From Gemmatimonadota bacterium (lineage in GTDB: Bacteria > Gemmatimonadota > Gemmatimonadetes > Longimicrobiales > Gaopeijiaceae): a stretch of DNA of 64,000 bases. The stretch is from the NCBI GenBank assembly GCA_028874905.1, contig JAPPGZ010000078.1, positions 3,595-67,594 of the forward strand, written 5' to 3'. Every line of letters begins with the position of its first letter. Within the stretch, counting starts at the first letter, position 1. Of the stretch, positions 37,183 to 59,542 are shown piece after piece. A program made the translations under genes and the position numbers. The notes below the pieces were generated by a model that did not search any database, had not been told where the DNA came from, and worked only from the letters and a program-made list of their open reading frames with translations.

Positions 37183-37452
37183 TCACCTGACACCCGGCCT
37201 CGCAGAGGTCAGTGCTACGCGGCGCCTTACCTGCTTTTTGGCCGAGGGCTTCCAAGCGCGCGGCTTCCGCGGTGTTCCGGTGTTGAAGGCCTTGTAGGGT
37301 GTCCGCCCTGGCATCCCGCGGCGGCGGTGAGGCCGACGGGTGTTGTGGGTCTCAATACAGCCGCCCAAGTCGGTCCGCACCTTCTCGGCGGTGGGTGCGT
37401 GCCACCGTAGACGTAGTGGCATTCTCGTACACGGGTATCCCTTGCCCAACAC
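37183..37452 (-). mobile_element. Relic of an IS481/IS3-type DDE transposase (C-terminal ~60 codons only)
   Basis: ...DLGGCIETHNTRRPHRRRGMPGRTPYKAF resembles the conserved YN..RPH..L.G.TP tail of integrase-core transposases. No catalytic core or terminal repeats present. Confidence 0.45.
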
Positions 37453-37480
37453 CGCTCAACCTGCTATCTTCTGGGAACGC

Positions 37481-37501
37481 AATGTGACATTCTGTCACAT
37501 T
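37481..37501. promoter_or_regulatory. Perfect 9-3-9 inverted repeat upstream of dcm (candidate operator for the methyltransferase HTH)
   Basis: AATGTGACA-ttc-TGTCACATT ends 39 nt upstream of the ATG at 37541. Confidence 0.55.
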
Positions 37502-37540
37502 GCCGACAGGGCTGCGGAAGATGAGGAAAGGACGGGCGAC

Positions 37541-38821: not shown

Positions 38822-39240
38822 CCGATATCGTCGATTCCCGGACCCGCAGCGCCATGATGGCGGCGATCCGGGGGAAAGACACGAAGCCGGAGGTCATTGT
38901 ACGCCGGTTTCTGCATCGCTCGGGCTTCCGGTTTCGACTGCACCGCCGTGACCTTCCGGGACGGCCGGACATCGTGCTCCCGAAATACCGCACCGTCGTC
39001 GAAGTCAGAGGGTGCTTCTGGCACCGACATGAAGGTTGCCCGTTCGCCTACATGCCGAAGTCGAATCGCAAGTTCTGGGAGTCGAAGCTGAACGGGAACC
39101 GGGAGAGAGATCAGCGGAATCTCAGGGAGCTGGCCAAGCTCGGCTGGCGCGCCATCGAGGTCTGGGAGTGCGAGTTGGGGGACGATGGGGTTCTTGAACG
39201 GCTGCCGGGTATGATCCGGGATCGGGTCTCCGGGGACTGA
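38818..39240 (+). CDS. vsr: Very-short-patch repair endonuclease
   Basis: RSAMMAAIRGKDTKPEVIVRRFLHRSGFRFRLHRRDLPGRPDIVLPKYRTVVEVRGCFWHRHEGC is the Vsr signature. TTG start overlaps the dcm stop by 4 nt. Confidence 0.9.
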   Translation: MTDIVDSRTRSAMMAAIRGKDTKPEVIVRRFLHRSGFRFRLHRRDLPGRPDIVLPKYRTVVEVRGCFWHRHEGCPFAYMPKSNRKFWESKLNGNRERDQRNLRELAKLGWRAIEVWECELGDDGVLERLPGMIRDRVSGD

Positions 39241-39256
39241 CAATGGATTCCGGCCC

Positions 39257-39892
39257 ATGAGCGTACGCGTCTTCATGAAACGGCTGGCGGAGGTCGAGAT
39301 CAATCCGCGGCTTTCGAACCAGCACGAGTTCAACGCTGGTGTGCTTCGACGGGAACTGGGGTTCGAAGCTGACCCTACTCGAGGCCATGTGGAATTCCTG
39401 TTCTACAAGACGGATGGCGGCGAGCCGGTTGTCGTGCGGGAGAACTACACGCTGTACGACGCGCGGCGGGACAACCCCAAACGCACCGAGTGGCGGATGT
39501 ACTACACCAACCTTGGTGTGGCGGCGCACGCCCGTGTTGATGACCTCATGCTTCTCTTCCGACCGGATTCGAGTAGCACCCACCTCATAGCCGTGATCGC
39601 ACGCAAGGGCACTGCGGTTGAGCGCGCGTTAGCCAAGCAACTCGCCGGACGCGAACCAGAGGAACTTGGTAAGAGGCTCTTCGTGGATTCGAGGAACGTC
39701 GACGCCGATACCTGTCGCATGCTTCTGCGATCCCTCGAAGGTTCTGTTTCGCCAGCCGAAGTCACGGCTGCCGCAGTTCGGTCGCATCCGCTCTTCCGGC
39801 AATCGTTCGCCTATGGTGTCATGCCGAACACGAACGAGATGGCAGGCGCGGCCCAGAAGATCATCACCGACCTTGGCGTAACGTCAGTCTGA
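39257..39892 (+). CDS. EcoRII-like restriction endonuclease, N-terminal (effector DNA-binding) part; separate ORF
   Basis: Position downstream of dcm-vsr, size, and a KRL(A/S)..N..(L)SNQHE start resembling the EcoRII-N KRLSANDTG..HQ segment. Ends 19 nt before the C-terminal ORF, in another frame. Confidence 0.5.
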   Translation: MSVRVFMKRLAEVEINPRLSNQHEFNAGVLRRELGFEADPTRGHVEFLFYKTDGGEPVVVRENYTLYDARRDNPKRTEWRMYYTNLGVAAHARVDDLMLLFRPDSSSTHLIAVIARKGTAVERALAKQLAGREPEELGKRLFVDSRNVDADTCRMLLRSLEGSVSPAEVTAAAVRSHPLFRQSFAYGVMPNTNEMAGAAQKIITDLGVTSV

Positions 39893-39911
39893 GCCCGACG
39901 AGTTCATACAA

Positions 39912-40472
39912 ATGGCGCTCGAAGCCGAGACGGAGCTGTTCATGTCCATCGAAAGCAGAATGGGCGATCGGGCGCTCGAAGAGGCCGTCAAGGAGGGTCG
40001 CTACGATTTCCACAAGGTGATGCAGATCTGTACGAGCTTCTCCCAACGGCGGAGGAGTCGCCGCGGCCAAAGCCTTGAGAATCACTTCCGTTTTCTTCTC
40101 GAGGAGCTCAGAATCCCTCACAGCTATCAGTGCACCACCGAGCGAGGGCGGAAGCCGGATTTCGTCTTCCCAAGTTGCGAACACTATCACAACCCCGGGT
40201 TCCCGGCCAGCCACCTGCGAATGGTCGGTTGCAAGACGCTGGTACGGGAGCGGCACACGCAATGGCTGGGAGAGGCGCTTCGGATTCCGCTCAAGTATGC
40301 CCTCTGTGTGGACCCTGGACTCTCGGATCGGTTGGTGGCGAGGTACAGAAAGCGATTGAGGTTCTTTCTGCCCCGGAGACTCCTAGATGCCACCTATGCC
40401 GATAGAGAAATCGGGGGACTACTCGGTTCGATTGATGACCTACTCGATGAGCTTCGTTTGCTAGCCCCATGA
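39912..40472 (+). CDS. EcoRII-like restriction endonuclease, C-terminal catalytic part; separate ORF
   Basis: GRKPDFVFPSCEHYHNPGFPASHLRMVGCKTLVRERHTQ matches my recollection of the EcoRII-C core (KPDF.FPS...Y.dp.FP...L.mLg.KTtcKdRWRQ), but with substitutions in the KDRWRQ stretch. Confidence 0.65.
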   Translation: MALEAETELFMSIESRMGDRALEEAVKEGRYDFHKVMQICTSFSQRRRSRRGQSLENHFRFLLEELRIPHSYQCTTERGRKPDFVFPSCEHYHNPGFPASHLRMVGCKTLVRERHTQWLGEALRIPLKYALCVDPGLSDRLVARYRKRLRFFLPRRLLDATYADREIGGLLGSIDDLLDELRLLAP

Positions 40473-40622: not shown

Positions 40623-41729
40623 GTGCGTAGACAGACTAGTGAGTGGAGTGTGCGTATGCTGTCGGATTTCAGGAGCCGGATCAACGTTGACGCTGAGTAT
40701 CAGCGGGGAGCCGTTTGGTCCCGAGGGCAGCAGGCCCTTCTCATCGATTCGATTATTCGTGGCTTCGATATCCCCAAGATATTCTTACGCAAGCTGCCTG
40801 AAGGAGGCAAACACCTCTTTGACGTGATCGACGGTAAGCAGCGGCTGACTGCCATATGGGCCTTTGTCTCGGACGAATTCACCTTATTGCGGAATACTGA
40901 GCCGTTTCCCGAGCTTGGTGACCTCAGCGGTCAGCGATGGTCTGATCTCTCTGATATGGCGAGAGATCGCTTGCAGTTTACGAACATTACCATATCAAAG
41001 ATCGAAGACGCAACTGACGACGAAATCCGCGAGCTCTTCTTGAGACTGCAACGAGGCGAACCATTGAACGCGGCTGAGAGGCGCCACGCAATGTCGGGGC
41101 CACTGCGAGATTTTGTGGCCGACCATCTCGCCAGTCATGGACTGTGGGAACTCACACGGCTGCGGGCCGTGAGATTCGGCAAGGACGAGCACTCCGCCAT
41201 TCTCCTAGCCCTCGTCTGCCACGCCGGGCCAACGGGCCTTAGGGGTGCCGACCTCCATCGCCTTTATGAGATGGATCATTTCGATCCCACCGGGAACGAT
41301 GCGAAGCGGACGCTAAGGCTATTGGACGCCCTCCGAGATGTTGCGAGCGTGCAGCCAGGAGCGATAAGAACGCGATGGGGTCTTGTCGACCTCGCTCTGG
41401 TGCTGCTAAGGCTAGGCGATGAGGAGATTCCTGTGCCGCCCGACAAGTTGATGGAGTTCTTCTTGGCGTTTGAGAGAGAGCGCCGAGACGTTGCAGAGAT
41501 ATTGGCAGATTTGCAAACAAGACTGGTGGAGCCTACGGAGGCAGAGAGGGGGATTTCGGAAGAGGAAGACGACGTCAGGGAACAGATAACTCCAGAAATG
41601 CTGACCTACCATCTTGCTTTTGCCCGCGAGGGGGCCAGCAAAGAGAACGTGGCCAAACGGGCTAACACGATGTATGCTAGACTTAGGGCGTTTCTTGAGT
41701 TTACCGAGCTAGGCGGTCAGCGGAGATGA
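40623..41729 (+). CDS. DUF262 (ParB-like NTPase, GmrSD/SspE N-terminal type) protein without a nuclease domain
   Basis: YQRGAVWSRGQQALLIDSIIRGFDIPKIFL and VIDGKQRLTAIWAF. No DUF1524/HNH His-motifs in the C-terminal helical half. GTG 40623 is preceded by GAGGAGG; ATG 40656 is an alternative. Confidence 0.8.
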   Translation: MRRQTSEWSVRMLSDFRSRINVDAEYQRGAVWSRGQQALLIDSIIRGFDIPKIFLRKLPEGGKHLFDVIDGKQRLTAIWAFVSDEFTLLRNTEPFPELGDLSGQRWSDLSDMARDRLQFTNITISKIEDATDDEIRELFLRLQRGEPLNAAERRHAMSGPLRDFVADHLASHGLWELTRLRAVRFGKDEHSAILLALVCHAGPTGLRGADLHRLYEMDHFDPTGNDAKRTLRLLDALRDVASVQPGAIRTRWGLVDLALVLLRLGDEEIPVPPDKLMEFFLAFERERRDVAEILADLQTRLVEPTEAERGISEEEDDVREQITPEMLTYHLAFAREGASKENVAKRANTMYARLRAFLEFTELGGQRR

Positions 41730-42460
41730 AGTGGTCGGAGCTTATCTGGGGGCGTCCAGCAGCGGTCATCGCATCGGTGGGTTTGGCCCTCGCCGCGTTC
41801 TGGGAGGCCTCGATCTGGGTCGTACTGTGTTCTGTGTTCATCGTGGTGCATGCGTTCGTAGGCTGGGTGCGGGAACGGGGAGTCGTCTGGAGGCTGGGTG
41901 CAAACTACCGAGACGTGTTGCGTAGAGTATTGCACTTGCTCTCCGATCTTGGGAATCTCTCGGCAAATGGGTATGATCTCTGGATGATCGAGGTGTACCT
42001 GCCGAAGTACGTCTGGGTCGGAATGGCTGCCAATTGGCGACCTGGCCTGCAGAGGGCATTAGTACGAGAGTTGTCGGTGTCGGTTGGCGGCGCTTCAGAG
42101 CCGCCCCACAAATTTGCATTGACGCATCAGTTGTTTGGAAGGTGCTTCCGACGGGGGAGGTCGGAGCTTTGGTGGGATCGATCTCTCACGGATTCGTCAT
42201 TGAATGGAGTCAATAGCCCAGCGGAACTAGACGAGAAGACGTATACGGAACTAGAGCGGACGTTTGGGGTGGTCAGCGTTCACCCCATCGTGGACGCCGT
42301 TGGCAAGGATTGCGAAGGCCTGATAGTTATCCATGTGGGGCGGGACAGTGAGGCAGCAACGAAGGTGCTTGGTGCCCTCACGCAGCAAGAAGGGAGGCGT
42401 AGAATACTCGGGGCATGCAACGACATTCACAGCTACATCAAAAGAAGAGAGTTGCTCTAG
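41726..42460 (+). CDS. Two-TM membrane protein with soluble C-terminal domain (unknown family)
   Basis: ATGA overlap with the DUF262 gene. TM helices AAVIASVGLALAAFWEA and IWVVLCSVFIVVHAFVGWV. C-terminus (VVSVHPIVDAVGKDCEGLIVIHVG) is faintly GAF-like. Confidence 0.5.
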   Translation: MKWSELIWGRPAAVIASVGLALAAFWEASIWVVLCSVFIVVHAFVGWVRERGVVWRLGANYRDVLRRVLHLLSDLGNLSANGYDLWMIEVYLPKYVWVGMAANWRPGLQRALVRELSVSVGGASEPPHKFALTHQLFGRCFRRGRSELWWDRSLTDSSLNGVNSPAELDEKTYTELERTFGVVSVHPIVDAVGKDCEGLIVIHVGRDSEAATKVLGALTQQEGRRRILGACNDIHSYIKRRELL

Positions 42461-44874
42461 TCTTCTAGGGCGGTGATAAGCTGTTCCATTTCGAACGTCA
42501 GCAGGAATTCCGCGTAGTGGTTGCTCAACAAATCCTTGATGTAGTCCGCTACCGGGACATCGGTGGAGTCACGTTGTAGTTGGTACTTTCGATTCTGCGT
42601 GATAGCGTACAGGAACAAGGTGTGAAAGTACACAGCTGACATGTATCGCTTCTCGGCGACGGTGATCGCCTCTTGGCTCTTCAGGCCGGAACGATGATTG
42701 AGCCACACTCTGCTATCCATATTGACATAGATTACGGTCAACATGTCTCCATCAATCGCAGGGTGAACGATGGTAGCGTGATCCATGTCAACGCCTTGGT
42801 TCTCCAATTCCTGCCACGTCAGGTCTCCTACGGTGTTGTGCCTATAGATGCGGACAAGCTTTGGGAGGCCCAGTTGCGGGTCCAATTCCTTGTGGCCCTG
42901 ACGGGCAGGTCTTTTCCGTCGTTCAGGATCGACAATCTTGACGAGAATGTTCTCTTGGAATCCACCTTCGGGACCAGTCAGCGTCGCCGATATGGTTATG
43001 GCGTCTCCCACCTGGACATCGTTCGTTGGGTTCAAGCCGAGGCGTATCGTTCCTCGATTCGGGCTCGACTTGATGAGATTGAACAGTTGGTCGACACGAT
43101 TCGGCAGCGGACGACGCTCACCTTCTCCGCCGGAAACATCGTATTGGAGCAGACCGACCGACAGCTCGCCAAGATCACTGATGCGATCGAAGTACTGATT
43201 CTCAACATCGGTCGAGAACTTGATGGTGCGTTGGCTTCCGAACGGAAGTTGGACCATCGGCATGCCATTGGCGCGGTCTGACAACTCAGCCCGGAAGAAC
43301 GAGGGAAACCGCTGAGGACTGAACGGCGGTGGTTCCCGCTTCTTCGAAGCAGGCTTCTTGGGACGTGTCGTCTTCCGGTTACCCTTGCCTGATCCCTTGA
43401 GCTTCAGGGTGTGGTCGAAAAGCCGCATCAACTCGTTACGGAACGGAAGGTTAGTCGTGAGGTTGCGGAGAAGATCGTCGGCGCCAGTATCGTCAACTGA
43501 TATCTTTGCCTTCCTCTCCTTGTAGATCTCCTTTAATCGCCCGTCTCTCAAGAGCTTGCCTAGGCGCTTTCGGAGCTCCCGTGACTCCCGTCCGTCCTTT
43601 AGCCGGTCCCGTGATGCCATGAACAACTCTTGGCGAAAACCGATGTCGAGATCCGTGCAATCCACATGGACCAAGACGTAGTCCTTGAGGAGTTGAAACT
43701 TGAGAGTTCGAGAAACGAACTCAGACGTATAGTGGCCGTGTACTTGTCCGTTAACCGAGAAGATCACGGTCATGTTGTTCTTGAAGAACTCTCGGCGAAT
43801 CGTTCTCTTCGTGTCCTTTGCGTTGCGATCACCGACACGAGGCCGAAATACATACGTCGTGACCTTAGCGGAGCCGATCTCACTGTCGCTGAGCGACTGC
43901 GAGAACGAATCTTCCACGTACCTACTCGAGTCTTCCTCAAGCCTGCGTTTTAGGCCATAGATGTCACGTTGAAGGTTCCTGTCGTCAGGGTAACGAGATG
44001 GCTGGTCGATAGTGAAGAACGGAAGAGCGGGATTGAAGAGATACTCATTGAGGCTCTGGTTCAAGTCCCTAGAGATGACGGAGCGTGAACCGCTCGGGAG
44101 GTCATATGAGTAGAGCTTGATGATCGTGCCGGTGGTAAAACGGCGATTGCGTAGCCCGAGATCCAAGTCCTGAATCGAGAAGGAAGGGACACATCCATTA
44201 GGAGCGAAATACTCGTACCAAGTATTCCGCTTTGTCGTCTTTTCGAGCTCCGTGAGGGGATGCCGCCGGAGCAGAGTAAAACCGAGATTCCCGGAACCGT
44301 CCCATCTTCGGGAGCCAATGAGTTGGTAACGCTGCTGACCGCAGAAAGCGATCGCGCCCGCTCCGCCCATGTTGTATTTGCCCTGCACGAAATGAATCTC
44401 GTTTTTGTTGCCTCGAAGCAGTGAGAGGAAAGTGTCACTGAAGTCGTGTGGATGTTGCCCTTCCCCGTCGTCGTAGATCAGGAGCGAGGTCTCGAACCTT
44501 GGTCCATCTGCGATGATCTGAATGCTCTCGGCCTGTTTGCTCCGGAAGCTTCGTAGGTCCCAGTCTCCGGAATCAGGGAAAAACCGCGCGACGGCGTCGT
44601 CCACGGAGCGAGGCGCCTCACTAGACCGTGGATCGATACCGTCCTGAAGGCAGCGCCGTGTCAGAATCGCGTCGATTGAGTTTATGACCTTCTCAACTAG
44701 AGCCGGGATTGGCGAAGCCTGCTGGTTCTCAACTACGCCGAAGTTACTCTCGATCTCACCGTAAGGTCGCCAGTTGGCCGGGTCGTGGAAGGTGGAGTAG
44801 CGCTCGATGACGGCAGAGACGCCGGTCTCAGTGTCAGCGCGAAACAACTCCCAGAAAAGTGATTCGGACTCCAC
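42457..44874 (-). CDS. GHKL (Bergerat-fold) ATPase-like large protein, 805 aa
   Basis: N-box EKVINSIDA, G1 YDDGEGQ, G2 GKYNMGGAGAIAF within the first ~180 aa. Basic low-complexity linker (KGSGKGNRKTTRPKKPASKKR). The remaining ~600 aa are unassigned. GTG start; lower GC than the neighbours. Confidence 0.6.
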   Translation of the reverse strand: MESESLFWELFRADTETGVSAVIERYSTFHDPANWRPYGEIESNFGVVENQQASPIPALVEKVINSIDAILTRRCLQDGIDPRSSEAPRSVDDAVARFFPDSGDWDLRSFRSKQAESIQIIADGPRFETSLLIYDDGEGQHPHDFSDTFLSLLRGNKNEIHFVQGKYNMGGAGAIAFCGQQRYQLIGSRRWDGSGNLGFTLLRRHPLTELEKTTKRNTWYEYFAPNGCVPSFSIQDLDLGLRNRRFTTGTIIKLYSYDLPSGSRSVISRDLNQSLNEYLFNPALPFFTIDQPSRYPDDRNLQRDIYGLKRRLEEDSSRYVEDSFSQSLSDSEIGSAKVTTYVFRPRVGDRNAKDTKRTIRREFFKNNMTVIFSVNGQVHGHYTSEFVSRTLKFQLLKDYVLVHVDCTDLDIGFRQELFMASRDRLKDGRESRELRKRLGKLLRDGRLKEIYKERKAKISVDDTGADDLLRNLTTNLPFRNELMRLFDHTLKLKGSGKGNRKTTRPKKPASKKREPPPFSPQRFPSFFRAELSDRANGMPMVQLPFGSQRTIKFSTDVENQYFDRISDLGELSVGLLQYDVSGGEGERRPLPNRVDQLFNLIKSSPNRGTIRLGLNPTNDVQVGDAITISATLTGPEGGFQENILVKIVDPERRKRPARQGHKELDPQLGLPKLVRIYRHNTVGDLTWQELENQGVDMDHATIVHPAIDGDMLTVIYVNMDSRVWLNHRSGLKSQEAITVAEKRYMSAVYFHTLFLYAITQNRKYQLQRDSTDVPVADYIKDLLSNHYAEFLLTFEMEQLITALED

Positions 44875-45030: not shown

Positions 45031-45879
45031 TCATAGAGCACACACTGCGCAGGGCACTGTGTCGTCTTCGTCGTCCAAGGCATCCCCCAAGACTTCGACA
45101 AGCGGCAAATCCCGCCGGTTCTTCGCTGCCGCATGCATCGCGTCCCGATGGCGGGTGAGGATTTCGCCTTTACGAGATCGCAATTCCGTCAGAGTCTCCC
45201 CCCCAGACCAAGTGTACTGGCGACCGCGCATCGCTCGGTCCCGGAAGTCGGCATCACCGGCCACCCCGGCGTCCTGGAGCACCTTCTGCTCGATCGCCAC
45301 GGCCCGCTCGAACAGTTCCGGGTGACGCTCAGCGAGCCCAATCCATTCGGCCTTACGCTGATAGAAGCAGAAATAGCACCCCGATCGCGTCCTCCATTCG
45401 TAATACTTGGGAAGCCCAATCCCAGCGTCCTCCAAAATCCGCATGACCCCCTCGCGGTCGACGCCGTCCTCGATAAAGGGGAACCGGGACTGTATGTTCG
45501 ACTTGGTAGAGATGTACCCCTTGCGGTTCGACTCGTCGGCGCGGATTGCGACGTAGGAGATCGCCGGGGCGTCGCCGATCCACTCCTCGATGGGCTTGAT
45601 CTTCATGTTCTTCGTGCACCACCGCATCTGTGGGGATGGCAGCGTGCCGCGAAACACCTCGAACCAGTGGTCGAACCCGCGAGTCGCGTTGAGGTGGGTG
45701 ATGGGTTTGCCGAGTATGACCTGAAGCCGGGTCAAGTACTCGTAGGTCTCGGGGAGCTCGGCCCCGGTGTCACAAAAGAAGTACTCCATCGCGGGCACGG
45801 TATGCCTGAGGTACACGGCAAGGGCACTTGAATCCTTGCCTCCAGAGATACCGCAGATGTGCCGAGTGGCGTCAGGCAT
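45031..45879 (-). CDS. sspD: PAPS-reductase-like PP-loop ATP pyrophosphatase (SspD-like)
   Basis: PP-loop ISGGKDSSAL and FCDTGAELPETYEYL. ATG 45879 gives an ATGCCTGA overlap with the upstream gene stop. Confidence 0.75.
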   Translation of the reverse strand: MPDATRHICGISGGKDSSALAVYLRHTVPAMEYFFCDTGAELPETYEYLTRLQVILGKPITHLNATRGFDHWFEVFRGTLPSPQMRWCTKNMKIKPIEEWIGDAPAISYVAIRADESNRKGYISTKSNIQSRFPFIEDGVDREGVMRILEDAGIGLPKYYEWRTRSGCYFCFYQRKAEWIGLAERHPELFERAVAIEQKVLQDAGVAGDADFRDRAMRGRQYTWSGGETLTELRSRKGEILTRHRDAMHAAAKNRRDLPLVEVLGDALDDEDDTVPCAVCAL

Positions 45880-48800
45880 TCCGGACAATGTTTGTGGTGA
45901 GATGGACCGCGGCATCGTCATCCGCCACTTCCTCGGAGGGGAGAAGCCGCTCGGCGATGACCGCAAGGAGCGCCGAGAGCCCTCTCTTCTCCGACCCCAC
46001 TGTAGCTACTAACTGGCCCATGGCCCTGTCAAGGACATCGATGACCATTTGCTGATCGCGATCGTCGACGCCGACAAGCGCAACGTGCTCTCTGCCGTCG
46101 GGACGAGTGAGCGTCACGCGGAAGGGTTTGAACGGCCCTCCACCATCAGCACTCTGGTTGGCGTGGAGGGCCACGAGCCTTAGGAACGCCTCCACCCGGC
46201 GACCCAGCACGTGCCGAAACCGGGCGCGATCCCGATCGGTCCATTCAGACGGTGCTTTCTCGGCAACCACAGTCGCGATCGTGTCGACCCAGTCGGCGTC
46301 GGCACTCAGGGTGTCGTTGGCGAGCGAGAGAACGAAAGCCCGAACCTCAGGATCGAGAACCTCGTCCTCGAGGGACTTGGCGAAACCGGTAATCGCCTTG
46401 CGGGATGTCTCACCGCTCGCGTGCAGTAGATCTTGGAATAGCTGCTCAAGCAGCCTGTCCGCACAGCCGACGAGCTCGTCCACAGCGTCAACGAGCCGGG
46501 CGGCGTAGGTGCCGGCCGCCGGGTAGCTGGACGCGGACGGCGGGACAGCGGGCATCGTGAGCGCATGCGGCAAGCTCTCGAACAGGAGTTCGTCTGGCTC
46601 CACGGCGGTGAAAAGAGCCTCTTTAGCCCTGACCGTCGCTTCGCTCAAGCTGTCCGTTCTGCGTGTGAAGTTGTCCAAACGCTGAACGCGAGCAACCAAT
46701 TGGCCGACAACGCCCAGAACGTTGGCGACCCGGACCCGGCCGAGTCTTGGCCTCACACCCATTCGCTCGGCGATGGCCTCTACGACCTGGAGGCGTGCGC
46801 CGGTCGTATTGGCAAAGTGCTTGACCTCGAAGTGTCCCGGGTTCCGGACCATTCGCTCAGACAGCTCCGGCGTGAGCACCGGAATGAACGTCCCGTGCTC
46901 GTAGATGGCGACGTCCTCGTCTCGAACCAGCAGTGCCGCAGTCACGAATACCGGTAGGACGCCGCGCTTCATGCCCACAGGGGGAGACAGCAGGCAGGCG
47001 TAGATGTCCCGAAGATTGACTCGACGCCGGGTCGCCCGGCGGAACTCTTCCTCTACCACTCTCCACGCCTCTTGGAGCGTTTGGTCGGTCGGCGGGCCGA
47101 AGATCCAACTGGACTCCTGCGGCTCGAACCTGTGAAGTCCGGTTCTCGCGAGGAAAGCCCGGTACATCGCGACATCCGGGCCGTGGCCCGCCAAGCCCAA
47201 TTGCCCAGTGTCGCCCCTCTCTATCATGCCTTCCAGAAGCATGCGGCGCGCCTTCGCTCCCTGTGAGGTCACGGTCGTGCGATTGAGGACTTCGTTGCCC
47301 ACAGACGGGGTGGACCCGTAAGCGATGTCACACGCGTTGGAAATGGGCGCGCTTCCGCGTCCGCTCTTCAGGTCGCGACCCCCCGAGGCGTCCACTAATT
47401 TCCACCGGCAACGACCGGTCCCAAACGCCTCCACGATCGCGCGGTCAACGTGCATCTGGGCTTGGGCGAATCTCTCGCTGACTTCCTGTCGTGCTACCCA
47501 GTCCTCTTCGACCGTCGGATGCTCCATTACGGACTTCACAGCCACTAGTTCACGCGCGGCCTCGTCCAACGCCGTCAGGTCTTCCGCTAATCCTGCCACT
47601 ACGGGCTTAGATGCCTTGGATGACTTCGCCAGGTGTGGCAGCCCACCTGGACCGACCACGAACAGAGCCTCGCCATCGTAGTCGGAAAATGCGTCGAGCG
47701 GTTCGACGGTTTCTCCACCGGCCACGTACCTTCGGGCAAAAACCCTCAGCACGTCGTGTTTGGCACTGTGCCTCGCGGCCACCATGGGGTTGGCCGTGTC
47801 GGTGTCCGACAGTATTTCGGCGAGCGAGCGGTCTTGCGTTTCCCTCCGAGCCCTGGAAAGGAGCTGATGGATATCGACATCGGTGCCCTGCCAGATGCGG
47901 TACTCGTCGGAGAAATCGCGATAGGTAACCACGCCGGCGGCTTCCAACTTCGGGAGAAGGTCGCTGGCATCAGGCTCCAACTCGCCTAGTAGCCGCTTCG
48001 ATGCCCGAAGCACGCCGGTTGTTGAGACGAGGTTGAGGATGGCGATGGCTTTGGCCAGGCGCCGCTGAGCCCCGGTGAGGTTGGGGGCATCGCGCAGACG
48101 CGTTGCGATCTCTGTCCAGCGGCCTTGGTCGACCGGAACGCCCGCCATTGTGCCGTTGGCCACGAAGTAGTCGTAGATGCCGGCCAGTCCCAAGGACGGA
48201 AGCTGGCCCTTTGGTGGTAGCGGGGTCGCGTTCAGGTACGAGGCCGCGCTGGCTGGGTCGGCGCTCGTCAGGAACGAGAACAGCGTTCGTTCGTGCTGCC
48301 CATATCGGTTACACAACTCTGGCAGGACGGCCGCTGCCAGGGGATGAAGTGGATAGCAGGACGCTACGACATCAGGGTCACTCGTTTCCGAGATGCCTAG
48401 TGTGCGCATCGTAGCGGACTGCCGATCGGCCCACTCGTCGATACGATCGCGGACTCCACCGTCTGTCTGAAACACGGTTCCGATAAGCGCCCGGGTCTGG
48501 CTTGCTGATTCGACGTAGGCCATGGACTCGAAGCGCCCCTGCACCTTTGCCCACTCCCGGCGTTGCGGTCCTTCCGTGTGCGACAGATAGTCTTCGAAGG
48601 AAAGGTGCTGCAACGTCATCAGGAAGATGGGGAGGCCTGAGCCTTGCCCGGCTTCGGCGAGTTGCTGAAGCAGATAGGGGTCCCCTTCGCTGCTGTCGGC
48701 GATCGCTTCTAGGTTCTTTCCGAATTCGTCGATCACCAGGAAAAAGGGCCCGTCACTAGCCAGGCACTTCGCAACCTCTATCAGCGCGGCTGGCGAGGGG

Positions 48801-49333
48801 CCAGTACGGCGGGGATCGTCGCTAGCCGCGTCACTGAGTGCCGTCTTGAGCGCGTCCGCGGCTGGGAAGCGGCGACGGGAGGGAATCCGGCCGAAAGCCG
48901 CCAACACGGCACTGTGGAGTCCCTTAAGTACAGTGAGATTCAATGGTTCACGCGATGCAGTCACCAAGCCCCGATGGAATCCGGTTTCCTGCGTTCCGTG
49001 ATTGTCGTGAGCCATCCACACGGAATCTGCCATGTCCGGGTCTGCCGCTTCCACGAGCCCGACTGCTGCATCCCGCGTTGCCCCGTCGGGCCCGAGTAGT
49101 CCGTCCAACAGCAGGGCTAGTGACGACTTGCCCGAGCCGTACGGGCCGGTAAGGGACCAAGCCCCTCCCGCCTGATGGGTTGCGGCCACGGTGAGAATCC
49201 GATCAACGGCTTCGAGCGCTCGCGCTGTAACGACATAGCCCTCGAGAGGTTGAGACTGGCGGGAATCTCGCTCGAGATTCGCGGACCGTGCGAAGCGTGG
49301 CAGGATTCGAACATGATCGCCGAGTGTCGGCAT
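45872..49333 (-). CDS. sspC: Large P-loop ATPase (SspC-like)
   Basis: Walker A GPYGSGKSSLAL and Walker B-like FFLVIDEFGKNLE. Size of 1153 aa. Position between the DUF4007 and PAPS-reductase-like genes. Confidence 0.7.
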   Translation of the reverse strand: MPTLGDHVRILPRFARSANLERDSRQSQPLEGYVVTARALEAVDRILTVAATHQAGGAWSLTGPYGSGKSSLALLLDGLLGPDGATRDAAVGLVEAADPDMADSVWMAHDNHGTQETGFHRGLVTASREPLNLTVLKGLHSAVLAAFGRIPSRRRFPAADALKTALSDAASDDPRRTGPSPAALIEVAKCLASDGPFFLVIDEFGKNLEAIADSSEGDPYLLQQLAEAGQGSGLPIFLMTLQHLSFEDYLSHTEGPQRREWAKVQGRFESMAYVESASQTRALIGTVFQTDGGVRDRIDEWADRQSATMRTLGISETSDPDVVASCYPLHPLAAAVLPELCNRYGQHERTLFSFLTSADPASAASYLNATPLPPKGQLPSLGLAGIYDYFVANGTMAGVPVDQGRWTEIATRLRDAPNLTGAQRRLAKAIAILNLVSTTGVLRASKRLLGELEPDASDLLPKLEAAGVVTYRDFSDEYRIWQGTDVDIHQLLSRARRETQDRSLAEILSDTDTANPMVAARHSAKHDVLRVFARRYVAGGETVEPLDAFSDYDGEALFVVGPGGLPHLAKSSKASKPVVAGLAEDLTALDEAARELVAVKSVMEHPTVEEDWVARQEVSERFAQAQMHVDRAIVEAFGTGRCRWKLVDASGGRDLKSGRGSAPISNACDIAYGSTPSVGNEVLNRTTVTSQGAKARRMLLEGMIERGDTGQLGLAGHGPDVAMYRAFLARTGLHRFEPQESSWIFGPPTDQTLQEAWRVVEEEFRRATRRRVNLRDIYACLLSPPVGMKRGVLPVFVTAALLVRDEDVAIYEHGTFIPVLTPELSERMVRNPGHFEVKHFANTTGARLQVVEAIAERMGVRPRLGRVRVANVLGVVGQLVARVQRLDNFTRRTDSLSEATVRAKEALFTAVEPDELLFESLPHALTMPAVPPSASSYPAAGTYAARLVDAVDELVGCADRLLEQLFQDLLHASGETSRKAITGFAKSLEDEVLDPEVRAFVLSLANDTLSADADWVDTIATVVAEKAPSEWTDRDRARFRHVLGRRVEAFLRLVALHANQSADGGGPFKPFRVTLTRPDGREHVALVGVDDRDQQMVIDVLDRAMGQLVATVGSEKRGLSALLAVIAERLLPSEEVADDDAAVHLTTNIVRNA

Positions 49334-50325
49334 TACGAGTCTCCGGCCGCCGCGAGGGCTAGTTGGCTCGGTTGCTTGCGTTCGGACGCGCTAGCACCTG
49401 GCACGCCGTAGTAGTCATCGAGGATTCGCCGCCCTAGCCCTTCGCGCTCGTCGGCCCAAGCGAGTTGGACACCCCCGGTCGCGGTGACCAGATCCAGTCC
49501 GGGGGTCCGTTCCACGGTGGCCTCAAGGCCCGTAAGCATCTCGGACTCGCTTAGCACGAATGCTCTACCAGGAGAGCCCGGCGCCAAGGCCAGTCGGCTC
49601 AGGGCGACCGTGTTGCCGCCTATGCCGATGCGAGTGAGGTAGTCCAAGGCCGAATACGCAAGCACTTCTGAGGGCAAGGTGATCTTTGTTCCCACCGTGA
49701 ACCGGTACCGCCCCAAACCGGGCGACCGGCCGATCAGGTTCAGTTCACGGAGCGGACAGTCGAGAATGTCGTCGATCGGGACGCGACCCCGCTGTTCGCG
49801 GGGCGCGTACGTGCGGAGCAACGCGCCAACGTCCTTCTTGATTGATGAGGTGTGTGGCTTTCGCCACTCGGCGGCCAGGTCGAGCTGCGTGTCGACCGCG
49901 GCCTGCAGATCGTCCTCCGTAAACTCCACAGCGTGGAATTCATTGAAGGCGAGCCACCAGATCGGCACGTGACTTGGTGGAGCCAGGAGCAACCAGTGGA
50001 GTAACCAGAGGGTGCCCGGGTCCTCCATGTATTGGTCCCATCCACCATCACCGAACAACGCGTCACCCAACGGCGTCGTCACCAGCTCCGGGGATCTTGG
50101 GGTGGGAGAGTCGGGATCCTCTGCAATCAGCTTGGCGGCTAGCCCCCAGAAGCGAATCGCCCGAACCATGTTCTTTCCCACCCCGATCCGAACTGGTGCG
50201 TCGTCGCCGAAGAAGGCACGTGGGTTGGAGGCCACTTGGGCGTACGCCTTCCGGAACCAACCGTAGCGAGGGTGGAAGGTCTCGTGTCTGGCGAACATCG
50301 GGACCGCAGCATCGACCAGTCTCAT
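49333..50325 (-). CDS. sspB: DUF4007 family protein (SspB-like)
   Basis: N-terminal ARHETFHPRYGWFRKAY...VGKNMVRAIRFWGLAAKLI is the DUF4007 signature. TAATG junction with the next gene. Confidence 0.8.
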   Translation of the reverse strand: MRLVDAAVPMFARHETFHPRYGWFRKAYAQVASNPRAFFGDDAPVRIGVGKNMVRAIRFWGLAAKLIAEDPDSPTPRSPELVTTPLGDALFGDGGWDQYMEDPGTLWLLHWLLLAPPSHVPIWWLAFNEFHAVEFTEDDLQAAVDTQLDLAAEWRKPHTSSIKKDVGALLRTYAPREQRGRVPIDDILDCPLRELNLIGRSPGLGRYRFTVGTKITLPSEVLAYSALDYLTRIGIGGNTVALSRLALAPGSPGRAFVLSESEMLTGLEATVERTPGLDLVTATGGVQLAWADEREGLGRRILDDYYGVPGASASERKQPSQLALAAAGDS

Positions 50326-51582
50326 CTAATCGAGCCCCGACAGACTGCGAACGCGCGTGACGGCCTCTGCTGTTCGGTCCAGTGCCACTTCGATGTCCTG
50401 TTCGGTCGTGAAGCGTCCGAAGCTAAATCGGACGCACTCGAACGCTGCCTCTCGGGACAGGCCCATGGCCAACAGAACGTCCGACGGCTCGATCGACCCC
50501 GAACTGCATGCGCTGCCCGTTGATGCGGCGACCGGATCCATGTTGGCCACTACGGCGTCCGCGTCAGCACCGTGGAAACGCAGATTGGCTGTATTAGGAA
50601 GGCGGCAATTCACATCTCCGATTTCGCTGACATAAGGCAATCTTGCCTTCAGGGCTTGGGTGAAACGATCACAGAGTCGTCCCACCCTTCGGGATTCCGG
50701 TACGCGTTCTTGGCGGGCAAGATCCGCTGCCACGCCGAGTCCGACGATCCCCGCGACATTTAGCGACCCAGACCGCAGGCCCCGTTCATGGCCCCCGCCG
50801 TGGATCTGCGGGCGCAGCTGGCGGAGAGCCCGGCGGCTGCCGACCAACGCTCCCACTCCACCAGGCCCACAGATCTTGTGGCCGCTTAGCGAGATGAGGT
50901 CGATACCCAACTCTTCCATCTCCAGGGGCATTCGCCCCACGAACTGCGTGACGTCCGAGTGGAGCAGGGCACCGGTCTCGCGAACGATCTCGGAGATCTC
51001 GCTGAGCGGGTTCATCACCCCGGTCTCGGCGTTGGCCGCGATCACCGACACCAACAGGACATCTGGTCCAAGCGATGACTCAAGTGCGGCCAAGTCGATG
51101 AAACCGCCTTCGGTGATCGGAACGATATTTAGGCGAACCAGACCCCGCTCTGCGAGCCACTTTGCGGTGCGCGATACCGACGCATGTTCGGCGGCTGACA
51201 CCAGCATCCTGTCTCGGCCCGCCGGCGCACCTTCCAACGCCCCTCGTAGAGCGAGGTTGTTGGCTTCCGTCGCGCTCGCGGTGAAGACGACGCCGTTTGG
51301 AGAGCCGCCAACCAAGGTCGCGACCTGCTCGCGTGCGTCGTCAACGAGTACCGCCTGACGCCGCCCAAAAGCATGAGTCGATGACGCATTCCCTGATCGT
51401 TTGGTGAGAATCGGGACCATGACATCAGCGACCCGCGGGTCGAGAGGTGCTGACCCGTTGTAGTCGAGGTAGATCTCTCGTTCGATGTCTCGCCCTGGCG
51501 ATTCATGCCGCCCCGTCCGTGGCACCGACACTTCGTCTAGCAACGTTGATACTTCGGACTCAATTCGGGTTACGTTCGGCAT
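50326..51582 (-). CDS. sspA: Cysteine desulfurase (class V aminotransferase; SspA/IscS-like)
   Basis: PLP-lysine SGHKICGPGGVGAL and active-site Cys loop ASTGSACSSG. TAGATG junction with the DUF4007 gene. Confidence 0.9.
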   Translation of the reverse strand: MPNVTRIESEVSTLLDEVSVPRTGRHESPGRDIEREIYLDYNGSAPLDPRVADVMVPILTKRSGNASSTHAFGRRQAVLVDDAREQVATLVGGSPNGVVFTASATEANNLALRGALEGAPAGRDRMLVSAAEHASVSRTAKWLAERGLVRLNIVPITEGGFIDLAALESSLGPDVLLVSVIAANAETGVMNPLSEISEIVRETGALLHSDVTQFVGRMPLEMEELGIDLISLSGHKICGPGGVGALVGSRRALRQLRPQIHGGGHERGLRSGSLNVAGIVGLGVAADLARQERVPESRRVGRLCDRFTQALKARLPYVSEIGDVNCRLPNTANLRFHGADADAVVANMDPVAASTGSACSSGSIEPSDVLLAMGLSREAAFECVRFSFGRFTTEQDIEVALDRTAEAVTRVRSLSGLD

Positions 51583-51655
51583 TATGCCCTATAGAATGGT
51601 GAAATACGGTCCCGTTTGGAAGGGGGGCGGTCCGTCGCCGACACCGAGGTTCCTG

Positions 51656-52543
51656 TCACCTCCCCTGAGCGCACACGATCGCTTTGACGACATTGGCGAG
51701 TTCCGGATCGTCGGCAGGACCGAGGCCAGGGGTCGCTTGGTAAGTTGCAATCTGTTGGAAGACGTGCCGGAGTTGTTGAGATCGCGCTAGAGGTGATCCG
51801 GGGTCCCCGGCAAAATGCCTAGCGAGAGCGAGGAAGAGAGCACTGCGGACATCGTTGGGGACGTTCAGCGGCCCGAACACGGAAAGGCCATCTTTGTCGA
51901 TCAAGCGGGAGATCAGATCTTCCCAAACCGATTTTCCCCTTGTCCGGAAAAGGGAACGGACGCGGTCCGCAACCTCGCTAGTGGCTTCCTCCACCATGCG
52001 CTCTCGCCACCAAGCTCGCGCGAACATGCAATCGACGTAGACGCTGCGGTGGCCCCGGGCTGGCGGAAGCCCGCCCAAACGCCGCAATGCTGTGCGAACG
52101 CAACGGTCGATCGCCAGTGGGGCATCATCAGCGAGGGCTTGATCGATGGCGGATGCACCTGGCAGGGGGTTGGTCGCGGCGAGGTGTGTTGAGTCGATTG
52201 TGCCTGCCCGAACATGGCAAGTGGTCACGTAGCCCCAGAATCCCGAGCAACTAGCCACTTCGGGAGGAACCTCTCCCCATCGCCGATAGAGACTCAATTC
52301 GAGGTTCGGTGGCAACGAACGGAAGTCTCTCTCTGATATCGGATCCTCCCACAGCGGCACCTCTCGGATGCCGTCGACTGGGAGTTCCGACATGTAGTTG
52401 ACAAGCGTGCGCCCGTCTCGGACAGCTTCGAGAAACTCCTTTTGGCGCCGGTCGCCCTTAGCCTCGATGAGCGCCTTCAATCTTCGGCGGTAGGGCTTCT
52501 CACAAAACCGTCTGTAGGGGACTGGCCCGTCGTCCAATTCCAT
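51656..52543 (-). CDS. Hypothetical protein, first gene of the ssp-like transcription unit
   Basis: Same strand, 73 nt upstream of the desulfurase gene. No motif recognised. ATG 52543 is preferred over the TTG at 52642. Confidence 0.45.
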   Translation of the reverse strand: MELDDGPVPYRRFCEKPYRRRLKALIEAKGDRRQKEFLEAVRDGRTLVNYMSELPVDGIREVPLWEDPISERDFRSLPPNLELSLYRRWGEVPPEVASCSGFWGYVTTCHVRAGTIDSTHLAATNPLPGASAIDQALADDAPLAIDRCVRTALRRLGGLPPARGHRSVYVDCMFARAWWRERMVEEATSEVADRVRSLFRTRGKSVWEDLISRLIDKDGLSVFGPLNVPNDVRSALFLALARHFAGDPGSPLARSQQLRHVFQQIATYQATPGLGPADDPELANVVKAIVCAQGR

Positions 52544-53721: not shown

Positions 53722-54621
53722 TCAATCCCCCCGCAGGCGCGCCAGGAAGTCCTCGGGCTTATCGCTGTCGAGGATCGCGGCCGCCCAGGCGATCCGGTCC
53801 CCGCCAGGGTCTTCGTCGAGCAACTGTTGCACTTCCTGTACGGTCCGCTGTCCGAACTTCCGTGCGATCAGCTGAGTCAGCACCGCCACCTGCCCCTCCT
53901 GCCTGATCTCGTCCAGGCTGCGCTGGAACTCGGTAACCACCGTGCCCATCGTCCTCGCCTCCTCCAATTGTCGGGTGGGAAACCCCTTCGAACGTAACAT
54001 CGCCTTGACCGACCGGGCCATGAACCGGTTGAAGTCACTGTCGTCGCAGGCTTCGACCAGTGGTCCAAGGACCGCAAGCACCGACCGCATCTGTCCGGCC
54101 GTCGTGACCCCCGAAAGCGCCAGCACGGCCTGTGGCAGGTCCTGCGGGTCTGTCGGCCGGGCCTCTCGAGGCAGCCGGCTCACCACCGTATAGCCGTCTG
54201 GAGCCGAGTGCCGGAACAGGTCGCTCAGCCGCGTCGCCGCGTGCCAGCGGCGGTCTCCGTGGTGCAGCACGAGCGCCACTGCAGCGACCTCCCGTTCCCC
54301 GCGCCCGAGCTCCTTGTCGCTTTGGAACAGGCTCTGGACTGCGAGACAACCGTAGATGGTCGTCCGGAGAGCCATGTGCCGCTCCGGTCGGCCCTGGAAT
54401 TCGAGCAGGAGTACCAAGTCCGTCGTGCCGTCCGTCGTACGGACCCGCCAGGCAGTGTCGGGATGGCGCCGCCGAAGCTTCTCGTCAATCAGTTCCGTGG
54501 GTAGCGGGTGCAGTGTCCGGTAGTCGACGCTGTCGGCCCACTCCGAGACATGTCGGCGGATAAGGAGTTCGATCATCCACGGGTCGGAGAAGAACCTTTT
54601 GAATGCGGCGTCGTCCGCCAA
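53722..54621 (-). CDS. Rpn family recombination-promoting nuclease/putative transposase, copy 3
   Basis: AAFKRFF, PDTAWRVRT..DLVLLLEFQG, LVLHHGDRRW. C-terminal ARKFGQRT...AAAILDSDKPEDF tail. Confidence 0.75.
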   Translation of the reverse strand: MADDAAFKRFFSDPWMIELLIRRHVSEWADSVDYRTLHPLPTELIDEKLRRRHPDTAWRVRTTDGTTDLVLLLEFQGRPERHMALRTTIYGCLAVQSLFQSDKELGRGEREVAAVALVLHHGDRRWHAATRLSDLFRHSAPDGYTVVSRLPREARPTDPQDLPQAVLALSGVTTAGQMRSVLAVLGPLVEACDDSDFNRFMARSVKAMLRSKGFPTRQLEEARTMGTVVTEFQRSLDEIRQEGQVAVLTQLIARKFGQRTVQEVQQLLDEDPGGDRIAWAAAILDSDKPEDFLARLRGD

Positions 54622-55644: not shown

Positions 55645-56832
55645 TCACTCTCCCGCCCGTGGCCAATCGGGCATCGCACGGAACATGTACTGATCGAACA
55701 TGGGGACGGTGAACGCGGTGTCGCCATACGAAGGGCTCCAGATCATACCCTTTCGGATCAGACCGGTCCGAAGGGGTCCGGCAGAGGTGACCGCGATCCC
55801 CAGCTTTGCCGCTACTTCTCCTGAACGGTGCGGACCGGGGCCCAGTTCAGCCATGGCTCTCAGGTAATCCTGCTCCCTTGGCGTGAGGCGGTCGAAGCGG
55901 ACGCGGAAGAAGCTTGCATCCAAGGCAGCAGTAGCCTTCCCGCTGGCCGACACCACATCCTGCCGGGTCACGGGCGACCTGGGCGCGACGTTCCAGGAGT
56001 GCGCCCCCCATTCCTGGAGAAAGTAGGGATAGCCTTCGGTTCGTCTGGCGATCTCCGAGAGGGCGTCGTCGTCGATTTCGGCACCGGCATCCTCGATCGG
56101 AACTCGAACAGCGCGCCTTGTGGCGTTCTCATCAAGGGGGCCGACACCGGGGAAATCGAAGAGGCGCTCCGAATAGCTCTTGGCTTCTCCCGACAGCGCC
56201 GCGAGCTGCGGCAAGCCCGCTCCGAACATCAGCAAGGGGAGTGCCTTCTGGCTGATTCGGTGCAGTGCGACAATGAGCGCGCGCAAATCCTCGTCGTTCA
56301 GGTACTGTACCTCATCGATCAGGATGGCTGCGGGCTGGTCCGCAGCCCTTGCGGCTTCTCCAATTGCCACCAGGAGGTCGGTGAGATCGGTCTCCAGGTC
56401 TCCGGACGCAGCCAGGCCCGGCTCGGGCTTCACACCCACTTCGAACTCCGCGTACGACACCTTGAAGGCGCTGGCGAAGTTCCGAAGGGCACCAAGTGCG
56501 TGATTCCCCAAAACCCGCGCCTTTTCCTTCCCGCTGATTCGATAGAGGATTCTGCGGAGCCTGGGAACCAGCAGTCCGGCAAGGCGGCGCTCTTCTGGTG
56601 CCTCGATGATGGCGGTCAGGTACCCCAGTGATTCAGCCAGTTCTCCGATCCTGGCCAGAAGGACGGTCTTCCCCACGCCTCGGAGGCCGAGAAGCATAAT
56701 GCTCTTTGCATGCCGCCCAATCTGAACGCGCTGTAAGGCAATGCTCGCCGTCTCGAGCAACTCGTCGCGACCGGCCAAGGCTGGTGGCCGCGACCCCGCA
56801 CCCGGTGCGAACGGGTTGACAACAGGATCCAT
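55645..56832 (-). CDS. AAA+ (ORC/Arch_ATPase-like) ATP-binding protein with C-terminal wHTH, copy 1
   Basis: FAGRDELL, Walker A GLRGVGKTVLL, Walker B AILIDEVQYL. C-terminal LTPREQDYLRAMAELG wHTH-like segment. Confidence 0.8.
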   Translation of the reverse strand: MDPVVNPFAPGAGSRPPALAGRDELLETASIALQRVQIGRHAKSIMLLGLRGVGKTVLLARIGELAESLGYLTAIIEAPEERRLAGLLVPRLRRILYRISGKEKARVLGNHALGALRNFASAFKVSYAEFEVGVKPEPGLAASGDLETDLTDLLVAIGEAARAADQPAAILIDEVQYLNDEDLRALIVALHRISQKALPLLMFGAGLPQLAALSGEAKSYSERLFDFPGVGPLDENATRRAVRVPIEDAGAEIDDDALSEIARRTEGYPYFLQEWGAHSWNVAPRSPVTRQDVVSASGKATAALDASFFRVRFDRLTPREQDYLRAMAELGPGPHRSGEVAAKLGIAVTSAGPLRTGLIRKGMIWSPSYGDTAFTVPMFDQYMFRAMPDWPRAGE

Positions 56833-57090: not shown

Positions 57091-57121
57091 GCTGCGCTGA
57101 TTGGGCTACAGACCGTCGACC

Positions 57122-59542
<2,421 letters not shown>

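Follow-up and report, generated by a model that had tools for sequence, protein, structure and literature searches.

Which gene acts together with a DNA phosphorothioate (PT) modification operon that stands without any of the partners described for such operons? The question is raised by sspABCD, four genes on the minus strand of a 64,000-nucleotide stretch from a Gemmatimonadota bacterium (contig JAPPGZ010000078.1, positions 3,595 to 67,594), which we call the window. We find that a neighbouring gene for an 805-amino-acid (aa) GHKL ATPase accompanies ssp genes in nearly every locus whose flanks can be assessed, and the conservation of this neighbourhood makes it a probable functional partner of Ssp. 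That the locus as a whole is a PT-based defence system of an undescribed Ssp subtype, in which a GHKL clamp ATPase would be the conserved partner and plug-in effectors would complete the restriction arm, is a proposal to which we give an even chance.

The identity of the writer is practically certain. The proteins of all sizeable open reading frames (ORFs) between 24 and 64 kb of the window were scanned with PADLOC v2, Pfam and NCBIfam, and each of the four proteins matches its own PADLOC model. The operon begins with sspA (50326..51582), which encodes a cysteine desulfurase that depends on pyridoxal phosphate (PLP) and serves as sulfur donor (PADLOC SspA, 1.3e-122; Pfam Aminotran_5, 9.8e-68), with the PLP lysine in SGHK at residue 233 and the catalytic cysteine in GSAC at residue 356. 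It is followed by sspB (49333..50325), the gene for the DUF4007 protein that is the DNA-binding/nicking subunit of the writer (PADLOC SspB, 2.2e-97; DUF4007 [PF13182], 3.5e-79, over the full length; HETFHPRYGWFRKAY at residue 14), and by sspC (45872..49333), the gene for an 1153-aa BrxC/ORC-like P-loop ATPase with a Walker A motif, GPYGSGKS(S), at residue 63 and VIDEFGKN at residue 200. The SspC match (E = 0, 1020 bits) spans positions 2-1101 of the 1104 in the PADLOC profile, the runner-up model being BrxC at 2.8e-98. The last gene, sspD (45031..45879), encodes a PAPS-reductase-like PP-loop ATP pyrophosphatase with the motif SGGKDS (PADLOC SspD, 6.8e-107; PAPS_reduct, 9.7e-9). We place its start at the ATG at 45879, giving 282 aa, and not at the beginning of the longer ORF of 45031-45966, because this start fits the sizes of homologues (268-297 aa) and the overlap ATGCCTGA between the sspC stop and the sspD start; the PADLOC profile begins at residue 35 of the longer ORF. 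At the other junctions the TAG stop of sspA abuts the ATG of sspB (TAGATG), and sspB and sspC overlap in TAATG. A preliminary description made from the sequence alone had recognised four coupled genes with these motifs and junctions as an SspA-B-C-D set in that order, and this reading was confirmed in full, down to the coordinates and the letters of the junctions, with the DUF4007, ATPase and PP-loop proteins all passing their SspB, SspC and SspD models. Since the domains, the order of the genes, their coupled junctions and the scores of the models all agree, the module is SspABCD, and the strength of the four matches cannot be due to chance. On its own, this part of the locus is an ordinary member of a known family. 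In Ssp biochemistry, the desulfurase SspA feeds sulfur to the PP-loop protein SspD, while SspB and SspC locate the site and open it.

The same description had claimed that no canonical restriction partner accompanies the operon, and this claim held: no ORF between 24 and 64 kb matched an SspE, Dnd or Pbe restriction model in PADLOC or Pfam, and the flanks carry no SspF or SspH signature. The obvious candidate for SspE is the DUF262 protein encoded nearby, but it matches GmrSD_N only and no SspE model at E<=0.01, while the true SspE of locus L043 scores 1.9e-239 with the same PADLOC library, and a BLASTP comparison of the two proteins aligns the DGxQR motif and nothing else. The names SspF, SspG and SspH are absent from the PADLOC matches in this range, in a library whose inclusion of such models is unconfirmed, and SspFGH was judged from its published signatures, a Walker A motif and an FtsK-like C-terminus, and not from reference sequences. 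By these signatures there is no SspF, the only Walker A proteins of the region being SspC and an McrB 10 kb away and none of the ssp-flanking ORFs having the motif, and there is no SspH, as Pfam found no FtsK-like domain between 24 and 64 kb. For DndFGH and for PbeABCD, which comprises an HKD-helicase, a small protein, a CxC ABC ATPase and a DndE cognate, we find neither a PADLOC match to a Dnd restriction component nor an AAA_23 or helicase gene adjoining the operon. The missing partner had also been presented as noteworthy, and this part did not stand. In the survey of Wang 2021, 2,211 of 2,678 sspBCD modules (83.9%) had neither sspE nor sspFGH, and such modules were considered either truly solitary or linked to undiscovered partners (PMC8092258). 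Absence of a known partner is thus the majority state and unremarkable in itself.

The candidate partner lies downstream of sspD on the same strand (42457..44874), where the preliminary description had placed an 805-aa GHKL-like ATPase, a placement and class that our analysis bears out. Only 156 nt separate it from sspD and the gap has no terminator-like site, for which reason the gene is probably co-transcribed with sspABCD. The protein is identical to OXN18_10310 of a Gemmatimonadota metagenome-assembled genome (MAG) and is a GHKL (Hsp90/MutL-like) ATPase by the motifs of the superfamily, having an N box (EKVINSID) at residue 61, a G1 box (DDGEG) at residue 135 and a G2-like glycine-rich lid (GKYNMGGAG, read by eye) at residues 165-173, all of them invariant across 30 homologues. 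PADLOC, Pfam and NCBIfam give it no name beyond a sub-threshold match to Pfam HATPase_c_3 (E 0.004; 17.6 bits, under the 25-bit cut-off). There is no MORC-type PADLOC match, with the middle domain modelled at low confidence, and an alignment profile of the GHKL protein found nothing at E<=1 among all PDB sequences.

The predicted structure is in keeping with the motifs. An N-terminal ATPase and middle domain are followed by a basic, disordered linker (K/R-rich, residues ~490-520), an immunoglobulin-like (Ig-like) sandwich and a C-terminal alpha/beta-helical domain. The full-length AlphaFold model is weak, with a predicted local distance difference test score (pLDDT) of 62.8, and in Foldseek it matches TRAP1 (E 3.5e-5 over 474 columns) as well as Hsp90 N-terminal domains. 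Residues 520-805 modelled alone reach a pLDDT of 87.9 and again give the Ig-like sandwich and then the alpha/beta-helical domain, and the PDB matches of this model are mostly Ig-like and beta-sandwich domains. The protein belongs to a family of at least 2,694 members in 1,795 clusters at 50% identity, which carry no functional names ("hypothetical protein" where named). Many distant members align only over residues 1-573, so that the C-terminal part is clade specific, and the Ssp-linked clade has invariant polar residues, e.g., N718 and H751, in its own C-terminal ~230 residues. The literature that we covered, including the 2024 and 2026 reappraisals of Dnd, Ssp and BREX, describes no GHKL, MORC or HATPase partner of Ssp, although this coverage is incomplete and subscription papers are mostly outside it.

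It is the genomic linkage that singles this gene out. A one-genome-per-species scan gave at least 488 relatives, and the counts here refer to the best-scoring 80 loci (48-79% identity), in which ssp genes were detected by tblastn and counted if they lay within 10 kb of the GHKL gene. By this measure sspD is present in 68 of the 80 loci, sspC in 67 and sspB in 62. Eleven of the 12 ssp-negative loci are on cut contigs and L013 alone has full flanks, which leaves 68 of 69 assessable loci with ssp. These come from about 20 phyla, and the 80 loci include Gemmatimonadota, Pseudomonadota, Bacteroidota, Poribacteria, Acidobacteriota, Planctomycetota, Verrucomicrobiota, Nitrospirota, Myxococcota, the candidate phyla radiation and Actinomycetota. 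In 38 loci the GHKL gene lies co-directionally downstream of sspD; 27 loci have it in convergent orientation, and in 11 the two are direct neighbours. It encodes the most conserved protein of the loci, with a median identity of 52% compared to 48% for SspD, 34% for SspB and 26% for SspC. All three plasmid records with a member of the GHKL clade (48-52% identical), from Ensifer, Devosia and Hymenobacter, carry ssp. The McrBC, PIN, Dcm and EcoRII genes from the same island of the window are not seen again in any of these 80 loci. The suggestion of the preliminary description that the restriction arm may be of an undescribed type is supported by this linkage together with the lack of a canonical partner. 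Ensifer adhaerens NER9 pC, Hymenobacter sp. YIM 151858-1, Ponticaulis profundi and Dyadobacter sp. 32 are candidates for carriers in culture. Judged by record titles alone, many carriers of the Ssp-GHKL combination are sponge associated (Poribacteria, Spongiihabitans, Poriferihabitaceae and Porisulfidus; L018, L021, L027, L032, L042, L043, L049-L051, L053, L059, L060, L068, L072-L074 and L077).

GHKL relatives of 29-39% identity have no linkage to ssp. At L092:6729-12500, a type I HsdR gene precedes such a relative by 3 nt and a YgjP-like peptidase gene comes after it; the relative is apparently frameshifted (360 + 527 aa). At L093:8794-12316, another begins 2 nt after an N6/N4 DNA methylase gene and has a Shedu SduA_C gene in its vicinity. 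As these distant relatives abut methylase or HsdR genes, the GHKL family as a whole accompanies DNA-modification modules, in agreement with the MORC/paraMORC picture of Iyer et al. 2008 (PMC2292703). Other distant relatives, in Pontibacillus and haloarchaea, stand alone. Scanning metagenomes with a relative of 39% identity gave two loci only, which provide context and are too few for statistics.

The loci carry a second and more variable element, placed next to sspD and the GHKL gene or in the space that separates them. When the ORFs of the 80 loci were clustered and representatives scanned against the family libraries, with presence tallied over 67 loci, 45 had a ParB/Srx-type gene (DUF262, DndB, SspE or ParB_N), 16 had another recurrent cassette and 6 had none. 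The most frequent are a ~173-aa protein with a DndB-family protein (~24 loci) and DUF262 with a Ser/Thr kinase or SIR2_2 protein (~20 loci), followed by a dual-HATPase "HEF_HK-like" protein with a 630-aa partner (8 loci), a second DndB-like-containing pair (6 loci), a three-gene set without family matches (5 loci) and canonical SspE (3 loci: L018, L043 and L060); MORC-like (MzaB-like) proteins and a ParB_N set occur as well. In 19-20 of the 80 loci a DUF262 homologue separates sspD from the GHKL gene, and in L014 the operon runs sspB-C-D-DUF262-SIR2-GHKL with genes overlapping or nearly abutting. The ~800-aa protein with HATPase_c_3 and a C-terminal HATPase_c, encoded with its ~630-aa partner at L005:12542-16863, L081:6333-10708 and six more loci, is called a "sensor histidine kinase" in PGAP and resembles the HEF_HK / Response_reg_2 elements associated with restriction-modification (R-M) systems (PMC8011034).

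In the window, the place of the cassette fits a pair of plus-strand genes that converge on the GHKL gene. The first (40623..41729) probably starts at the GTG at 40623, after GAGGAGG, and encodes a DUF262-only protein of 368-399 aa (Pfam GmrSD_N, 6.1e-18) with DGKQR at residue 101, of the ParB/Srx type and like the N-terminal part of SspE, which makes it a candidate modification-sensing NTPase. It is without GmrSD_C/DUF1524, and its top PADLOC match, NsnA (8.2e-28), covers profile positions 46-213 of 385 only. The second gene (41726..42460) overlaps the first by 4 bp, shares the letters CTAG at 42457-42460 with the GHKL gene, in which the two stops overlap, and encodes a 244-aa protein with two N-terminal transmembrane (TM) helices, a candidate cassette effector, whose hydrophobic segments are confined to residues ~6-50. 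PADLOC, Pfam and NCBIfam returned no match for the 244-aa protein or for a 257-aa protein. The family of the 244-aa protein has only 3 members in 5.8 billion proteins, and all three (among them those of L089 and L091) follow a DUF262 gene beside Ssp-type genes, the Ssp evidence in L091 being a partial cysteine desulfurase at the contig end and nothing more. The preliminary description was right about a convergent DUF262-only gene with a 2-TM partner and about the GHKL-like gene as the other flank, but treated these flanks as unexplained, whereas the comparative data mark them as likely partner genes.

Ssp modules that are 76-88% identical to that of the window show several downstream arrangements. 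In L084 and L085, sspABCD and the GHKL gene are followed by a DndB gene; in L090 they are followed directly by EcoRII-Vsr-Dcm, with no cassette; and in L089 insertion sequence elements separate the GHKL gene from the DUF262 + TM pair. In L098:5268-15197, from a Gemmatimonadetes MAG, a 295-aa gene and sspABCD are 83-88% identical to those of the window, and after sspD the GHKL gene is replaced by genes for a 702-aa protein, 37% identical to a 658-aa Sigma70_r4-like protein of L095, and a DEAD/ResIII helicase. Alternative restriction partners of a single writer are expected to swap in just this way among close relatives.

How these parts may work together can be outlined from analogy with described systems. 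SspA-B-C-D would place single-strand PT marks on host DNA as a self mark. A dimer of the GHKL protein would act as an ATP-driven clamp on DNA and might read or relay the modification state, as has been proposed for MutL/MORC-type proteins in repair and R-M systems. A ParB/Srx-type NTPase, here the DUF262 protein, which is akin to the PT-stimulated N-domain of SspE, would then execute defence together with an effector, and the effector slot would be filled here by the 2-TM protein, possibly acting through membrane damage, and elsewhere by SspE (HNH), SIR2, kinase or DndB-like pairs. In the general form of this proposal, the 805-aa protein would be a widespread fifth Ssp component (at least 488 loci), a MutL/Hsp90-like clamp that reads PT and, as a hub, links the exchangeable effectors (HNH, SIR2, kinase, GIY-YIG-like or membrane protein) of a modular restriction arm, and we consider its chances to fall slightly short of even. 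The specific mechanism of hub and cassettes is less likely than not to be right. Several observations weigh against the proposal. The 80 GHKL loci are the top-scoring ones of at least 488 and hence a non-random sample; the GHKL gene is found in only 3 of 84 plasmid records that bear SspD, which makes GHKL-Ssp a minority subtype; and the 2-TM protein is without a family and has three members only. No nuclease, no known PT-binding domain and no sulfur-binding fold was recognised in the GHKL protein by Foldseek with the models described, of which the full-length one has the low pLDDT given above. Six of the 67 loci, and likewise the close relative L090, are without a recurrent cassette, and because such cassette-free sspABCD+GHKL loci exist, the GHKL protein may work by itself, the cassettes perhaps being independent lodgers of a hotspot.

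This last possibility is the core of the main rival explanation, according to which the GHKL protein would be a self-sufficient restriction arm acting on PT-lacking DNA, by a cryptic C-terminal nuclease or by MORC-like compaction, and the cassettes would be separate add-ons. It would account for L007, L011, L016, L021, L027, L041 and L090, in which sspABCD and the GHKL gene occur without a recurrent cassette, for the distant relatives that form an apparent two-gene unit with a methylase (L093) or stand 3 nt after HsdR (L092), and for the invariant polar N718 and H751 of the clade-specific C-terminal ~230 residues; additive partners also have a precedent, as SspE and SspFGH act additively on one SspBCD module (PMC8092258). 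However, no nuclease fold or motif was recognised, the well-modelled C-terminal part (pLDDT 87.9) matching mainly Ig-like/beta-sandwich domains, and a recurrent cassette is present in 61 of 67 loci, often translationally coupled between sspD and the GHKL gene. We regard a self-sufficient GHKL arm as possible, though less likely than not.

Two further explanations, in which the GHKL gene would have no part in restriction, are less likely than this rival. The protein could be an accessory or regulator on the side of the writer that sets where or how often SspABCD modifies, like DndB, and has no defence role. The probable shared transcript with sspABCD, with its 156-nt gap and no terminator-like site, would suit such a role, as would the very high conservation, which is that of a housekeeping-like partner, and the co-occurrence with canonical SspE in L018, L043 and L060, which indicates that the GHKL protein does not simply stand in for SspE. 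But SspABCD alone is enough for PT modification in studied systems (PMC8092258), only a few percent of Ssp modules have the GHKL gene, the gene is convergent to the ssp operon in 27 loci, and its relatives keep company with methylase and type I R-M genes and not with sulfur enzymes, all of which makes an accessory of the writer improbable. Alternatively, SspABCD could be an orphan with an epigenetic or redox role, with the GHKL gene, the DUF262 + TM pair and other neighbours as mere passengers of the island. The 83.9% of sspBCD modules without a known partner, for which solitary roles have been proposed (PMC8092258), and the density of defence genes in the window would agree with this, but chance cannot yield ssp in 68 of 69 assessable GHKL loci of about 20 phyla, and the McrBC, PIN, Dcm and EcoRII genes of the island, with recurrence in 0 of 80 GHKL loci, behave differently. 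Co-location by chance is accordingly very improbable.

The gene upstream of sspA (51656..52543, minus strand) is present as the preliminary description had it and encodes a 295-aa DUF6339-like protein. The protein (295/328 aa) has no direct PADLOC, Pfam or NCBIfam match, but its homologues in L082, L083 and L098 (75-84% identity) are likewise encoded upstream of sspA, and homologues of 40-43% identity carry PF19866 and belong to clusters with PP-loop proteins and desulfurases. It was considered as the missing core partner and rejected, as a hidden Markov model of the family matches 0 of the 80 GHKL loci. One of the sulfur-modification cluster layouts is shared by three metagenomic genomes (L095:3629-18587, L096 and L097). 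Its genes encode, in order, a PP-loop protein of 445-449 aa with the motif SGGRSS, a cysteine desulfurase that shares 43% identity with SspA, a protein of 661-667 aa that has GHKL motifs (ELIQNALDA and DNGVG), a protein of 290 aa, a DUF6339 protein that shares 42% identity with the 295-aa protein of the window, and a Pbe/CxC-ABC-like set of a helicase, a 73-aa protein and an AAA_23 ATPase, with a DndB or ScoMcrA-type SBD-HNH gene nearby. This cluster may be a further sulfur-modification system that uses a GHKL protein. The 661-667-aa protein was rejected as a homologue of the 805-aa protein (hhalign probability, 0.3%), and the likeness is at most an analogy.

Taken as a whole, the window is a defence island densely filled with genes for McrBC, a PIN protein, Dcm-Vsr-EcoRII and transposases. 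An McrB-like AAA_5 GTPase (747 aa), the N-terminal region of which matches the PADLOC candidate PDC-S02, McrC and a PIN_12 protein are encoded by three overlapping genes at 32732-37130, which make up a type IV-like module of their own within the island. They are followed at 37340-40472 by Dcm (helix-turn-helix and C5 methylase), Vsr and EcoRII, the last being split into two ORFs (39257-39892 and 39912-40472). The L090 homologue (75-82% identical) is one 402-aa gene, and the copy in the window is probably a pseudogene, if the split is not a sequencing error. The island is flanked by three YhgA-like (Transposase_31) genes (24624-25712, 30610-31719 and 53722-54621) and by two genes for 395-aa AAA_16 ATPases (55645-56832 and 62771-63958), the latter two having near-identical family-scan profiles. 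Between ~24 and ~54 kb the G+C content is 0.54-0.63, down from ~0.69, and L082 repeats the order AAA_16 - Transposase_31 - 295-aa gene - sspA; the AAA_16/Transposase_31 repeats may mark a mobile unit. At 57101-59542, two ORFs of >800 aa overlap on opposite strands, of which only the one on the minus strand has domains and encodes a hybrid kinase (GAF-PAS-HisKA-HATPase_c-receiver-Trans_reg_C), the one on the plus strand being a high-G+C shadow.

For the partnerless Ssp modules, a concrete candidate partner is now at hand in the GHKL protein, which is both widely distributed and highly conserved. If this is true, part of the ~84% of "orphan" sspBCD modules would be explained, and catalogues of defence systems would gain a new subtype, the 805-aa protein matching nothing in PADLOC v2. 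It would also be the first link between a GHKL ATPase and DNA backbone modification and would carry the MORC/MutL theme, in which GHKL proteins act together with epigenetic marks, beyond base methylation to sulfur in the backbone, and one self mark would serve swappable effectors that share a ParB/Srx-type sensor. With a locus of ~12 kb, the question of the GHKL partner is directly testable.

Among known systems, the closest is SspABCD-SspE of Vibrio cyclitrophicus FF75 and of Escherichia coli 3234/A (Xiong 2020, as summarised in PMC8092258), whose writer agrees with that of the window in its four genes, their order and their motifs, and the DUF262 protein near the operon in the window has the DGxQR of the N-terminal NTPase domain of SspE. 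SspE, however, is a fusion of ~700-800 aa, whereas the DUF262 protein of the window is without the DUF1524/HNH half and is paired with a 2-TM protein, and the window adds the 805-aa GHKL ATPase as a conserved extra gene. SspFGH of Vibrio anguillarum FF-93, in which SspF has a Walker A motif, SspH has an FtsK/SpoIIIE-like C-terminus and all three genes are essential (PMC8092258), is likewise a non-SspE partner of an Ssp writer that lies next to sspD and is widespread but patchy. Compared to SspFGH as described, the partner in the window is a single GHKL-fold gene with no Walker A motif and no FtsK domain.

The GHKL ATPases of the MORC/paraMORC type in R-M systems (Iyer, Abhiman & Aravind 2008, PMC2292703) and the GHKL-Shedu protein VcSduA (PMC12137116) offer a second comparison. 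They too combine a GHKL ATPase with a middle domain beside DNA-modification genes and are laterally mobile, predicted engines of clamping or looping, and the distant relatives of the window protein adjoin a methylase or HsdR in the same manner. In contrast to the window protein, they have been described with methylases, helicases and fused nucleases (restriction endonuclease fold, TIR) and not with PT writers, and the window protein itself barely matches HATPase_c_3 and has an Ig-like and novel C-terminal region in which no nuclease domain is seen. In the MORC and paraMORC1-5 families, the GHKL and S5-fold module goes with motifs or C-terminal domains particular to each family (restriction endonuclease fold, TIR, HxH). 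Finally, the two-gene systems with a split DUF262, namely, Menshen with NsnA and GrwAB/TgvAB (PMC12137116), also consist of a DUF262-only protein and a separately encoded partner, and NsnA is the best PADLOC match of the window protein. The window differs from Menshen in that PADLOC found no NsnB or NsnC among the neighbouring genes, and it differs from all these systems in that the partner is a family-less 2-TM protein and that this pair, like its SIR2 and kinase analogues, is embedded in ssp operons.

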